Shown: in pieces, positions 52,343-63,557 of the stretch
How the letters are laid out: each line of letters starts with the position of its first letter
Position numbering within the stretch: position 1 is the stretch's first letter
NCBI RefSeq assembly: GCF_055900595.2
Contig: NZ_CM148325.1
Direction: 5' to 3' (one strand)
DNA length: 64,000 bases
Notes under the pieces: model-generated
What the model was told of the DNA's origin: nothing
Database searches by the model: none
Seen by the model: the letters and a program-made list of their open reading frames with translations, nothing else
Program-made: the position numbers and the translations under genes

Positions 52343-54595
52343 TTACAAATAGAAATAGTTCGGCGGTTCTCCTGTTTTCCCTAAAAGAAGAGCGCTGCGC
52401 CCAGGAATATTGATATTTAGAGCTCCGCCTCTAAGCGTAAATACTTTACCAGGGGGAATACTTTTGCGTGTATTATTATTATTAATGGTAACGCTATTAC
52501 TCCCCATGTTTTTATATATTCCTGGTTGCAATTTGTTAGGCCAGGTACCTTCAACTTCTTCGTTTCCTTTATTTATTATAACTAGTCCATCATGAGGAGA
52601 GTGATTAATGTTCACAGAATCCCCACGACTAAAGGCCAGAACATTTTTAGTTGCAAATACACCCTCAAATGCGCTCCATATTCCTTCTTTATCTATATAT
52701 AATGCGTGGAATTCATTGTAGAGCTGCTGATAGGTAGAGCAACCTTTATTAAGCCACGCCTCACCGCCGACACGAGTGGACCCATCATCATTTTTAATCT
52801 CAGTCGTTGATTTTAATACCTGACCATCCCAGTAAACTAAAGGCCTGCTGAACGGGAGAGCGGCCATATATGCCATTGCTAATTGTTCATCTTGCTGATG
52901 GTTAAATAAAAAGTCATTGAAAAGATTACCATTGTTAGGGAAATCGTGGTTGATGTTAATCAATATCCGTCTTTCTGATGGGATGCTTGAGATTGCGGAA
53001 CCCGGTTTTGATGCAAGGGTTTGGAGATCTCCACCGAATGAAAAGGCTTGTATCGTCTTCATGAGCAATGAAAAATCAATGGCGCTTAAATCATCTCTTT
53101 CATAAAGCAGCGATGACATTTGTTGTTCATCTAACGGACAAGTTACCAGGTATTCCATGTAATTCATAACAGCTTTTTTTTGATATTTTGGATTAAATAA
53201 ATTTGTATTGTGCAACCGCTCATTATAATTTTTAAGCGGTGGGGTTATCGACCTCTCTATTTGTTCATGTTTTGAGTGTTTTGCTGCATCATAACGTAAA
53301 CCTCGTACGCCATATTTTCGCATTTCACGAACGTATTGATTTTGCAACATAATAACCTGGTCACTTTTGGGTGTTGTTTTAGGCATTCCATTTAAACGCT
53401 TTTCTTTTAATGCATGGAGGTTTTCCCATTCATCCTTAGAAATATTATCTTTACTTGCTTCGAAGTCTTTTGCAGTGAGATGTATATCTTCTGGATGGAT
53501 TTGGTCACGTTCTTTTGTTACTGGATCTATAATAAAGGGAATCAAGACCTGACCTTGCCAATAGCCAGGGATACCACTTTCTATATCTTTACTAATCTTC
53601 GCTCGTATATCGGCAGAGGGATAATCCAGATCATTTTTACCACTACCCCCGATTCCCATAAAGTTAAATGTATAATCAGGAATGATATCGATGCCAAATT
53701 TTTTGGCATCTTTAACCAATGCGATAAAATCCTGCAAATCTCCCATTGGATTATGGATGGTACAAAGATCTTCGGGTTGATAAGCGTGATACCAGTAACC
53801 TTTTTCTTCTTCAGGTGTTTCTGGTCCGTCGGCGCGGAAAGTTGTTACGGGAGGGATTTGTATATAACCATAATGGCAACGTGCAAACTCGGCCATATTT
53901 TTCCTGATTTGCTGGTAGGTGGCATTAAAAGCATGAAGAATCGCCTCGCCAGGTTTTTTGGGTGTGATGATTTCACATTGTGATTTCTGATCAGCAGTAA
54001 GAGATTTACGCTCAAGTGTTTGCCGTAGATGTTCTGGATTGATTAATATTTTAAATGTTTCTTGCTGGCCGGAAGGTGACGTTACGTTAATATTATATAC
54101 ATCAGCTGCCAGTTCATAGTCAGGAATGTTAATAGCATATGCAACATACTTATCTTTTGGAGACGGTTTGTCAGATATAATGTGAGTGAAATGTTCAGCT
54201 GGACCATACTGATGAACACCGCTGTTATCACCTCTTTCAATCATTGTATCTCGTTGATAAACCCATGTTTTTCCTTCTCCTATCCTGTCTGGCGCTGTAA
54301 TGCTACGCTGTGCTGCTTTATTCAACTCTCGGTAAGTTGTATCTGGAAAAAGGGAAATTTTATAATCGTTTTTTAACAGATCATTAATGACTTTTTCTGC
54401 GTGAAAAGTTGATATAATTTCTCTGTCTTTTAAATCCTGAGGATAAACTCCACAAGAATTAATAATATTTGTTATACAGTTCAGATATTCTAATGTATTT
54501 AATTTGGAATTTAGATCCCCGTCAGTAATGTTCCATGATAACAATGTGGGGTTGTCGATAGGTAAATTTCTTGGTCCTGGTTTTATAGAAAACAT
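52343..54595 (-). CDS. ygaQ: Uncharacterized 750-aa protein YgaQ (apparently intact); weak resemblance to GH13 alpha-amylase catalytic-region motifs
   Basis: Uninterrupted AT-rich ORF between csiD and tRNA-ileY; FGIDIIPDYTFNFMG segment is GH13-like but the function call is low-confidence. Confidence 0.6.
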   Translation of the reverse strand: MFSIKPGPRNLPIDNPTLLSWNITDGDLNSKLNTLEYLNCITNIINSCGVYPQDLKDREIISTFHAEKVINDLLKNDYKISLFPDTTYRELNKAAQRSITAPDRIGEGKTWVYQRDTMIERGDNSGVHQYGPAEHFTHIISDKPSPKDKYVAYAINIPDYELAADVYNINVTSPSGQQETFKILINPEHLRQTLERKSLTADQKSQCEIITPKKPGEAILHAFNATYQQIRKNMAEFARCHYGYIQIPPVTTFRADGPETPEEEKGYWYHAYQPEDLCTIHNPMGDLQDFIALVKDAKKFGIDIIPDYTFNFMGIGGSGKNDLDYPSADIRAKISKDIESGIPGYWQGQVLIPFIIDPVTKERDQIHPEDIHLTAKDFEASKDNISKDEWENLHALKEKRLNGMPKTTPKSDQVIMLQNQYVREMRKYGVRGLRYDAAKHSKHEQIERSITPPLKNYNERLHNTNLFNPKYQKKAVMNYMEYLVTCPLDEQQMSSLLYERDDLSAIDFSLLMKTIQAFSFGGDLQTLASKPGSAISSIPSERRILININHDFPNNGNLFNDFLFNHQQDEQLAMAYMAALPFSRPLVYWDGQVLKSTTEIKNDDGSTRVGGEAWLNKGCSTYQQLYNEFHALYIDKEGIWSAFEGVFATKNVLAFSRGDSVNINHSPHDGLVIINKGNEEVEGTWPNKLQPGIYKNMGSNSVTINNNNTRKSIPPGKVFTLRGGALNINIPGRSALLLGKTGEPPNYFYL

Positions 54596-55154
54596 AATAA
54601 AGTTCCTCTAATGGTAGAGTAATATGGTGTATACGGAAACATAAAAATGTTTAATTGTTGTGAAAGTAATTGCAAACAGATGTCCTACTTTTATCCAATA
54701 TTTATATGGAAAAGGATAATGCTTAAATCTGTTTTTTTAATTATCGATGTGGTCTGGAGAGGCAACTGTCAAAAATCGCTCATACGAAACTAATGATTAG
54801 CAGAATAAGATCTATGAAAGAATATATTGCTATATGAAGTTTATTTTTATGGGGTGAAAAGTAACAGATATCATAATGATGCGAAAACTCTTCAGCTAAT
54901 GTAATAAAGTTATATTATTAGATACAAAATCATTACAAACTATCATTGAATCGATGGTAACTATAAATAGTGCTAAGTATTAGCATTTGCTTGTTGACTG
55001 AGAGTATCGACTTTGTGAATGGAAGCGGTGTCGGGTTTTATGTCGCAGGTAATGACGACCCAGGATGAATGAGAACGCATAAAAATCTGTTATTTACATC
55101 ATAAGATCATCATGTTTATTGCGTGGTTTATAAGTATTGTTATTGCATACTCAA

Positions 55155-55230
55155 GGCCCTTTAGCTCAGTGGTTAGAGCAGACGACTCATAATCGCCTGG
55201 TCGCTGGTTCAAGTCCAGCAAGGGCCACCA
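55155..55230 (+). tRNA. ileY: tRNA-Ile2 (CAT anticodon, lysidine-type)
   Basis: 76-nt GGCCCTTTAGCTCAGTGGTTAGAGCAGACGACTCATAATCGCCTGGTCGCTGGTTCAAGTCCAGCAAGGGCCACCA; identity as Ile2 rather than Met inferred from genomic position. Confidence 0.85.
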
Positions 55231-63035: not shown

Positions 63036-63195
63036 CCATCAACGAAAAAGCCCACATCTGTGGGCTTTCATATCACCAAGAGCCGCGGCTCCTTTGCGTA
63101 TCCTTTTATGTCTCCTCACCGTCTGGTCGGTGTCTTGCTGAGACTTCTAACTTCCTGTTTTTGTTGGTGTTGTCCTTGCACCGTCCAATCATGAT

Positions 63196-63557
63196 TGGTG
63201 GAGCTGGCGGGAGTTGAACCCGCGTCCGAAATTCCTACATCCTCGGTACTACATGCTTAGTCAGTCTTTACATTTGCTTGCCAGCTGCGGACGGACACGC
63301 CACTAACAAACTAGCCTGATTAAGTTTTAACGCTTCAACCCCAGGCAGGGCTTCCACGCGATCTCTTTTGGGTTTGACCTCTCTTGATCCCCGTCCTAAG
63401 AGCGGAGGCTAGGGAGAGAGGGCTCTAAGCAGGTTATTAAGCTGCTAAAGCGTAGTTTTCGTCGTTTGCGACTATTTTTTGCGGCTTTTTACGAGGCCAA
63501 CCGCCCTCGGCATGCACCTTGGGTTTCGCAAATCCCGTCGAATCCAGAATCAGCCCC
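63196..63557 (-). ncRNA. ssrA: tmRNA (SsrA)
   Basis: Minus strand reads GGGGCTGATTCTGGATTCGACGGG...GCAAAAAATAGTCGCAAACGACGAAAACTACGCTTTAGCAGCT (tag peptide ANDENYALAA) ...GTTCAACTCCCGCCAGCTCCACCA. Confidence 0.95.

Follow-up and report, generated by a model that had tools for sequence, protein, structure and literature searches.

The AT-rich glaH-ssrA segment of an Escherichia coli chromosome and its two unoccupied attachment sites

Gene content, borders, and composition of the segment

As summarized in Table 1, the 64-kb window (the whole stretch of DNA analyzed here) carries near its end a variable, AT-rich segment of 10,838 bp between the core gene glaH and ssrA/smpB. Its gene order and sequence agreed with the RefSeq annotations of strains AF39, E400634, and K-12, which identifies it as the ygaQ-ileY-ypjCB-pinH'-ypjA segment of the E. 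coli chromosome, the counterpart of b2647-b2658 in K-12. Comparison by blastn with genomes lacking this island placed the left border at 52206/52207, inside the glaH-ygaQ spacer, and the right border at 63044/63045, so that both are intergenic. The right border lies 151 bp away from the 3' end of ssrA and coincides exactly with the end of the intrinsic terminator of that gene; as read directly from the sequence, this terminator consists of a stem at 63050-63065 and a minus-strand T-tract at 63045-63049. On the far side of ssrA, smpB extends from 63772 to the window end. A repeat search detected no direct repeats flanking the segment borders, no integrase ORF was present between 52207 and 63195, and an Rfam scan of 51500-64000 identified ileY and ssrA and nothing else.

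Table 1. Features of the glaH-ssrA region (window coordinates)
Feature	Position	Strand	Basis
glaH (csiD), core gene, left flank	51031..52008	-	Alignment to RefSeq glaH of AF39, E400634, K-12; GC 0.522
Left part of ancestral glaH-ssrA spacer, positions 1-198	52009..52206		89% identical to SCU-484 spacer
Variable AT-rich segment, in place of 337 bp of spacer	52207..63044		blastn borders; GC 0.427
ygaQ, intact (750 aa), distantly alpha-amylase (GH13)-like, module A	52343..54595	-	Pfam, PDB matches
ileY, tRNA-Ile2, anticodon CAU, module A	55155..55230	+	ARAGORN, Rfam; tRNA-Ile in RefSeq relatives
Module B: ypjCB, pinH remnant, ypjA	55553..63044		No homology here in E. albertii
ypjCB (DUF5507 + DUF5508)	55982..57425	+	NCBIfam NF050179, Pfam, alignment to AF39
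pinH remnant, serine recombinase/DNA invertase catalytic-domain fragment	57775..57936	+	Pfam Resolvase PF00239
ypjA/ehaD, intact 1557-aa AIDA-type autotransporter adhesin	58362..63035	+	TIGR01414; RefSeq name YpjA/EhaD
Right part of ancestral spacer, positions 536-686	63045..63195	-	89% identical to SCU-484 spacer
ssrA (tmRNA), native 3' end	63196..63557	-	ARAGORN; Rfam 291 bits; junction alignment with K-12 attL/attR, E400634

Module A comprises ygaQ and the AUA-decoding ileY and reaches to about 55552. YgaQ matched the Pfam families Alpha-amylase and Alpha-amylase_C weakly and amylases in the PDB at 5e-8. As had been predicted, ygaQ is intact, its product having the full length of the intact RefSeq CDS; K-12 has the gene only as a pseudogene, and E400634 has a frameshift in it. 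A PADLOC search with YgaQ, YpjCB, and YpjA yielded one marginal match, that of YgaQ to a GlgB-type model (E 4.6e-4), which is attributable to the amylase-like fold; YpjCB and YpjA gave no match, and a defence island was thus unsupported. A peptide-pattern scan for YgaQ over one genome per species found no relative, the E. coli representative itself probably being island-less. The tRNA gene expected at 55155-55230 was confirmed by both ARAGORN and Rfam, and the name ileY corresponds to the tRNA-Ile annotated in RefSeq relatives. Its CAU anticodon is read as Ile after lysidine modification.

In module B, the 456-aa ORF (56055-57425) that had been regarded as an orphan proved to be ypjCB, which is not fully intact. 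It scored 912 bits against NF050179 (cut-off, 650), with coverage confined to profile positions 29-465. The alignment to AF39 revealed that the native ATG at 55982 is severed from the body of the gene by a frameshifting 11-bp deletion after 55993, and that the ORF restarts at Met29 of ypjCB. The identical deletion occurs in E400634, whereas in K-12 the gene is split into ypjC and ypjB by a different lesion. A PDB sequence search with YpjCB gave no match, and the AlphaFold2 model built from a 16-sequence alignment had a mean pLDDT of 37.8.

The predicted recombinase remnant, 46 residues in a 55-codon ORF, was recovered as positions 43-89 of the 145 of PF00239 (E 2.5e-7), and its nucleotide sequence shares 76-82% identity with invertase genes found in P2-type and Fels-2-type phages. 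The complete catalytic and DNA-binding domains of a functional Pin/Hin-type serine recombinase are absent. Descent of the fragment from a Fels-2/P2-type prophage formerly integrated at ssrA was considered and, in this form, rejected, as the ancestral spacer directly adjoins ssrA. YpjA, in one intact ORF, combines the beta-barrel (TIGR01414, 1.7e-97, residues 1116-1557) and repeat-rich passenger of an AIDA-I-type (type Va) autotransporter; the passenger contains 13 strand-loop-strand repeats (TIGR04415), Ag43 and AIDA matches, internal repeats, and a Pro-rich linker, and the N-terminus carries a putative signal-like sequence recognized in the translation.

The sliding-window GC run bore out the original prediction that the DNA from ygaQ to ypjA is more AT-rich than its flanks, the GC content of 52207-63044 being 0.427 versus 0.522 for the backbone (1-52113; 500-bp windows, mean 0.522, sd 0.046). 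No other low-GC block in the window comes close to it in size. The AT-rich part of the segment reaches only to about 60500 (52207-60500, GC 0.395; 34 windows of 500 bp, mean 0.401, minimum 0.286): ypjA has a GC content of 0.499 overall, with 0.459 in its 5' half and 0.532 in its 3' half, and the AT-rich block thus ends near 60500 and not at the end of ypjA. The third codon positions deviated likewise, with a GC3 of approximately 0.31 in the segment (ygaQ, GC 0.380 and GC3 0.306; ypjCB, 0.352 and 0.309) versus 0.61 in glaH. AUA codons numbered 11-27 per 1000 in the segment versus 3.1 in the backbone (4-9 times), and 26.7 in ygaQ (approximately 9 times). Such composition and codon usage are the atypical ones of a horizontally acquired islet, and the segment is presumably silenced by H-NS.

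Distribution and the island-less state

The nearest sequenced relative, E400634 (NZ_CM128600.1), was 99.9% identical over 51001-63194. K-12 MG1655 has the same gene order and orientation (ypjA-pinH-ypjB/ypjC-ileY-ygaQ), flanked there by glaH on one side and by the right end of CP4-57 on the other, at 89-96% nucleotide identity; the patch at 56.7-59.05 kb is hyper-divergent (89% identical to K-12). The segment with its genes and both attachment sites discussed below is known biology, covered by the K-12 annotation and by published work. The window's arrangement, ypjA next to an empty ssrA junction, is also ordinary, being shared by 1385 of the 5426 complete E. coli genomes (about a quarter). 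In 2558 genomes, 80% or more of the query, which comprised the island plus the directly adjoining flanks, was present in one place, and about 1100 had the island-less junction glaH-spacer-ssrA. What the present analysis adds is the exact borders, together with evidence for a 686-bp ancestral spacer, for ileY as cargo, and for a native tmRNA 3' end.

Escherichia whittamii and Escherichia sp. E1V33 also lack the island. In the island-less state, a conserved 686-bp spacer (91% in E1V33, 84% in E. whittamii) joins glaH to ssrA, and the island occupies the place of its central 337 bp. Homology to the spacer of the island-less E. coli SCU-484 breaks off at 52206, the flanks on either side being 93.6% (glaH) and 92.8% (ssrA side) identical to that strain; the right spacer part is conserved in E. 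whittamii and E1V33 as well. The segment is thus a presence/absence polymorphism with conserved flanks.

A further comparison was provided by one E. albertii contig, which ends about 6.6 kb beyond ileY. The part in common consists of ygaQ (61% identity at the protein level), ileY, and 320 bp, with homology ending at window position 55552, and it likewise adjoins glaH, which is 92% identical in nucleotide sequence and 97% in protein. The segment had no genuine mobile copy in plasmid and phage collections: the three "plasmid" records that matched over its full length measure 4.8-4.9 Mb and are probably chromosomes.

Attachment sites at ileY and ssrA

The 3' 46 nt of ileY (55185-55230) serve as attB for integrase elements in other strains, as in ET826, where a tyrosine-integrase island is joined exactly at the 3' part of ileY. 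This attB is common to ileX and ileY (PMC8767318), and the elements that target them include SpLE1-like and ter islands (PMC8767318; PMC8193136). In the window, an intact tRNA gene with one copy of the 46-nt sequence is followed by native downstream DNA, and the site is unoccupied.

It had been proposed that the island is bracketed by ileY and ssrA as two integration targets, which was not supported: ileY is internal, and the right border lies off the ssrA end. This geometry bears on the possibility that an integrase inserted a single island at the 3' end of either RNA gene, and that integrase and att repeats subsequently disappeared from the island. In other strains both genes have been proven to act as att sites, module B begins on the 3' side of ileY as is usual for tRNA-targeted islands, and a recombinase fragment is present. 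However, ileY is embedded in AT-rich DNA, with ygaQ to its left and module B to its right, and is missing wherever the island is missing; ancestral spacer separates the right border from ssrA; the fragment derives from a P2-type serine invertase and not from a tyrosine integrase; and module A alone is common to E. albertii. The direct repeats that had been looked for were also absent, since blastn-short with the ileY and ssrA 3' ends matched only the genes themselves in the window. We thus regard this possibility as unlikely, and ileY is cargo of the island rather than its target.

The 3' end of ssrA (63196) faces ypjA across a 160-bp gap without ORF or integrase, beginning after the ypjA stop at 63035; as originally predicted, no prophage intervenes where K-12 has CP4-57. 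In K-12, too, 160 bp separate the ypjA stop from sequence derived from ssrA, with the difference that this sequence is the 14-nt psaA remnant (attR), beyond which the 22-kb CP4-57 intervenes before ssrA itself. E400634 differs from the window in carrying at ssrA a 23.6-kb integrative element with genes for an integrase and two more tyrosine recombinases, for a relaxase, for HxsABCD, and for ParB-like proteins. The alignments of K-12 attR (psaA) and of E400634 attR to the window extend into ssrA itself, and the identity block of the empty attB is the 3' 15 nt of the gene, 63196-63210 (TGGTGGAGCTGGCGG). The CP4-57 crossover falls within this part of ssrA, and not within 63036-63195, the interval relative to which it was to be mapped.

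When the window was aligned with K-12 attR/attL, E400634, and AF39, it showed a single, uninterrupted native ssrA 3' end that retains A63202 (U357; PMC10107115) and a flank collinear with that of K-12 attR. The ssrA attachment site is truly empty, in agreement with the original prediction, and its CP4-57-type attB is unoccupied. An integrase or prophage contiguous with ssrA beyond the window edge is excluded, because smpB lies on that side and DNA there cannot occupy the attachment site.

Such an empty site could also have arisen by recent excision of a CP4-57-like element from this lineage. The closest relative is occupied, CP4-57 excision is known (PMC10107115; PMC3105296), and if the att repeats of such an element were perfect, its precise excision would give the same sequence. 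Excision of the K-12 element, however, deletes U357, that of the E400634 element would take out 8 nt (63195-63202), and the same empty junction recurs in the 1385 genomes mentioned above, making recent excision very improbable. Both landing pads, the 46 nt of ileY and the 15 nt of ssrA, are thus empty here and occupied by integrase elements in sister strains, and the strain offers a clean recipient background for studying the integration of ssrA- or ileY-targeting elements.

Origin of the segment

We consider it about 80% probable that the segment is old, horizontally acquired DNA that is no longer mobile and occupies a hotspot of gene flux flanked by the core genes glaH and ssrA/smpB. In the proposed course of events, the 686-bp spacer would represent the ancestral state, and its central 337 bp would later have been replaced by the island, probably not through the action of an integrase on the end of a tRNA or tmRNA gene, because the borders are intergenic and att repeats are absent; any att scars may have eroded. 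The segment would comprise at least two modules, A and B, since E. albertii shares only ygaQ-ileY, and this in very diverged form. Today it would be inherited vertically and presumably also spread by homologous recombination in the flanks.

The original description as an older, decayed acquisition was supported as to age, foreign composition, and decay, and needs revision as to a single acquisition. Judged from the alignments, the segment is old, because the identity of ygaQ-ileY to K-12 (95.5%) about equals that of the backbone (96.4%). It is decaying, as seen from the recombinase fragment, the frameshifted ypjCB, and the ygaQ broken in relatives, and it is no longer mobile, the 46-residue fragment being its sole recombinase trace and no true plasmid or phage record carrying it.

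Conversely, the segment might be ancestral to Escherichia, and the island-less state of phylogroup B2-type E. coli, E. whittamii, and E1V33 a deletion spread by recombination. The position of ygaQ-ileY next to glaH in the outgroup E. albertii, which may reflect older presence followed by loss, and the backbone-like divergence just described fit this alternative, and IS-mediated deletions of the region have been documented in E. coli W and B (PMC3032704). Yet the island-less genomes have 337 bp that are missing from the island genomes, which rules out a simple deletion, and this piece is conserved at 84-91% across three species. The strongly atypical GC, GC3, and AUA use and the misfit of the YgaQ and GlaH identities in E. 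albertii with joint vertical descent also speak against it. We consider this explanation somewhat less probable than even the integrase-driven one. In the favored explanation, the direction of change (gain versus loss) is read from two other Escherichia species and one E. coli junction type.

Compared with known systems, the segment resembles P4/CP4-type islands (CP4-57, SpLE1-like) in its atypical composition, its accessory cargo including an adhesin, and its site beside ssrA and a tRNA gene. It differs from them in that no adjacent tyrosine integrase, no att duplication at the far border, and no border at an RNA 3' part was found. It also resembles the integrase-independent hotspots that lie between core genes (Touchon et al. 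2009; PMC2617782), in that a single conserved position has alternative contents, an integrase is lacking there in most genomes, and the flanks here are unusually diverged. The locus departs from those hotspots by including two true att sites, such that integrase-driven and integrase-free flux are superimposed.

Returning to the replacement of the spacer by at least two modules, we tentatively suggest that module A could have been a self-sufficient, tRNA-bearing islet, in which the AUA-rich ygaQ traveled with its own decoder ileY and imported a second ileX-type attB. The landing pad thereby placed beside ssrA might then have captured module B and, elsewhere, SpLE1/ter-type and SrfABC-type elements; if so, the hotspot grew because the island brought an attachment site. 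More speculatively, the fast-evolving, Escherichia-restricted YgaQ and YpjCB might be host-interaction proteins, the one hint being effector-like ORFs beside ileY in E. albertii, for which NCBIfam returned no family and Pfam an OTU match at only E 0.045.

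Composition and genes of the glaH-ssrA segment

The segment between glaH and ssrA (52207-63044), which corresponds to the K-12 region b2647-b2658, had been described as an AT-rich island against its flanking backbone, and GC contents computed on exact coordinates bore this out: 0.427 for the whole segment and 0.395 for 52207-60500, against 0.522 for the backbone (1-52113; 500-bp windows, mean 0.522, sd 0.046). In the 500-bp sliding profile, GC fell from 0.53-0.60 over gab/lhgO/glaH to 0.28-0.46 at about 52000-60500, and was back to about 0.52 beyond about 60500. Since the GC of ypjA (0.499 overall) differs between its 5' half (0.459) and 3' half (0.532), the AT-rich block ends in the middle of this gene. 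The foreign composition was also apparent in ygaQ (GC 0.380, GC3 0.306) and ypjCB (GC 0.352, GC3 0.309), and AUA codons amounted to 11-27 per 1000 in the island genes vs 3.1 in the backbone; a link of ileY to these AUA-rich neighbors would be plausible.

Features of the variable segment and the adjoining tmRNA gene
Feature	Position	Strand	Evidence and state
ygaQ	52343-54595	-	Intact, 750 aa; distant alpha-amylase-like
ileY (tRNA, anticodon CAT)	55155-55230	+	ARAGORN and Rfam; tRNA-Ile in RefSeq relatives
ypjCB (456-aa ORF)	56055-57425	+	NF050179, 912 bits; DUF5507 + DUF5508
pinH remnant	within ORF 57748-57915	+	Pfam Resolvase positions 43-89 of 145
ypjA/ehaD	58362-63035	+	Intact autotransporter adhesin: beta-barrel, AIDA/Ag43 repeats, Pro-rich linker
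ssrA (tmRNA)	63196-63557	-	ARAGORN and Rfam

The ygaQ gene is a pseudogene in K-12 and frameshifted in the nearest sequenced relative, E400634. The match of ypjCB to NF050179 covers only profile positions 29-465; reading from its native ATG (55982) gives MLVSN-stop owing to an 11-bp deletion after 55993, and the long ORF begins anew at Met29. The 456-aa ORF may code for a protein shortened at its N-terminus, or may be a pseudogene. The same deletion allele occurs in E400634, where the RefSeq annotation uses an ATT start. Among the YpjCB homologues listed, all those bearing an organism name were from Escherichia or Shigella, with a mutual identity of only 76-96%, the E. coli alleles differing in up to 24% of their protein sequence. 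The pinH remnant showed 76-82% nucleotide identity to P2/Fels-2-type invertase genes. The roughly 350 bp 5' of ypjA (57982-58361) have ~90% identical copies on many E. coli plasmids, annotated as 'ATPase', 'ymgJ' or 'hypothetical protein', and may represent a leader common to autotransporter genes.

Borders of the segment and the role of ileY

In the island-less E. coli SCU-484, glaH and ssrA flank a 686-bp spacer, positions 1-198 of which correspond to 52009-52206 and 536-686 to 63045-63195, defining the borders exactly, while no counterpart of the middle 337 bp was found in the window. The full spacer is kept in Escherichia sp. E1V33 (91%) and E. whittamii (84%), in which glaH is directly followed by ssrA. 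Given this conserved spacer and its unmatched middle part, the likeliest reading of the alignments is that the 10,838-bp island took the place of 337 bp of older spacer. On the right, the border falls where the intrinsic terminator of ssrA ends (stem 63050-63065; minus-strand T-tract 63045-63049). The segment contains no mobility genes or att repeats: no direct repeats were found flanking it, and a search of the window for second copies of the ileY or ssrA 3' ends returned only the genes themselves. The island flanks (51000-52206 and 63045-64000) were unusually diverged from SCU-484 (identity 93.6% at glaH and 92.8% at ssrA/smpB), a pattern compatible with allelic lineages of long standing or with hotspot recombination.

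Both ileY and ssrA are textbook attachment sites, and the original prediction took ileY as an integration target bracketing the island. However, wherever the island is absent, ileY is absent too, and thus ileY is cargo rather than target. Its attachment site is empty in the window; in E. coli ET826, by comparison, a tyrosine-integrase island is joined to the chromosome exactly at the ileY 3' 46 nt, with no intact copy of the tRNA gene found over 20 kb. This island (L006 1-20000) exceeds 20 kb and encodes a tyrosine integrase, Fic, AlpA, YfjI, SrfABC and a vWA protein. SpLE1-like and ter elements have been reported at ileY, which is stated to have one attB in common with ileX (PMC8767318, PMC8193136), and E. 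coli strains W and B have lost ileY by IS-mediated deletions (PMC3032704).

The native attachment site in ssrA

The gap between the ypjA stop and the tmRNA 3' end, described as about 160 bp and free of integrase or prophage, is 160 bp long, and no coding sequence was found in it. On the 5' side of ssrA, smpB extends past the window edge, and therefore no integrase or prophage contiguous with ssrA can be hidden there. Occupied counterparts were found in E400634, which is 99.9% identical over 51001-63194 and then has an insertion of 23.6 kb, an integrase-encoding element, beside ssrA, and in K-12, where CP4-57 lies at the same position, followed by a 14-nt pseudo-ssrA ('psaA') 160 bp from ypjA. 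In the junction alignments, the K-12 attR side agreed with the window through 63210, minus A63202, and that of E400634 agreed to 63194, lacked 63195-63202 and continued with GCTGGCG. These alignments place the crossover block at 63196-63210, inside ssrA and not in the spacer (63036-63195) relative to which the CP4-57 insertion point had been sought. A63202 is tmRNA U357, the base deleted on CP4-57 excision (PMC10107115). As the native ssrA 3' end is complete in the window, the site is a native attB, unoccupied as proposed, and not a footprint of CP4-57 or the E400634 element.

Simple excision of the E400634 element, whose attR lacks 8 nt (TTGGTGGA), would truncate the tmRNA, a predicted loss that parallels that of U357. 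The element (L003 13734-37001 and L004 1-1867) is integrative and apparently mobilisable, and encodes the integrase, two further tyrosine recombinases, a relaxase, HxsABCD, two ParB-like proteins and a serine recombinase.

Proposed modular history, distribution and other loci

In E. albertii, a ygaQ homologue (61% aa, 67.5% nt) lies beside glaH (92% nt identity), and ileY with about 320 bp downstream (74.6%) is homologous up to 55552, past which unrelated AT-rich ORFs follow. The ygaQ-ileY part showed 95.5% identity to K-12, similar to the backbone, whereas 56700-59050, spanning the ypjCB 3' part, the pinH remnant and the first 700 nt of ypjA, showed only 89%, against about 96% elsewhere. The E. 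albertii limit and the uneven K-12 identity thus suggest two modules, 52207 to about 55552 (ygaQ, ileY) and about 55553 to 63044 (ypjCB to ypjA). The second is placed 3' of ileY, the usual side for tRNA-targeted insertion, and may have arisen by integration at ileY, although no att scar remains. In E. albertii NBRC 107761 (L013 1-6598), the ORFs beyond ileY (GC 0.371) include one for a 362-aa Pro-rich protein that weakly matches OTU proteases (E 0.045) and an L31 type B-like gene; judged by eye from the sequences, some may resemble secreted effectors.

The backbone is that of E. coli, with about 96.4% identity to K-12 and at least 99% identity to only 8 of 5426 complete genomes. The segment is polymorphic: at ≥80% coverage, a 701-bp probe for the junction of the ypjA 3' end and the ssrA 3' part was matched in 1385 of the 5426 genomes, and a probe for the island-less junction in 1100, ST131 among them. 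Something is inserted at ssrA in roughly half of the genomes, as estimated, not counted, from 25 evenly spaced rows of the ranked ypjA-ssrA probe matches.

The segment lacked all three defining characters of an integrase-delivered tRNA island, and has those of a horizontally acquired islet in a plasticity hotspot with unoccupied attB sites; nothing in it is new in kind. The original prediction was sound as description, and only partly so in its mechanistic framing. Acquisition would predate the split from the K-12 lineage, by an integrase-independent insertion or one whose scars have completely eroded, and silencing by H-NS-type proteins would be expected. Present inheritance would be vertical with flank recombination, as generally proposed for such hotspots (PMC2617782).

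Elsewhere in the window, the serV-arg tRNA array (18712-19339) has three tRNA-Arg(ACG) genes, against four in K-12; an overlapping minus-strand ARAGORN call, tRNA-Arg(TCG) at 18828-18899, is probably spurious. Relative to K-12, an insertion between luxS and emrB (22841-24958) carries two minus-strand ORFs, one of 235 aa with no family match and the other, of 370 aa, ending in a Pnkp-like P-loop kinase region. A second insertion (38516-40460) has a gene for an AhpD-like protein of 143 aa and one for a 444-aa PdxR/MocR-type regulator.
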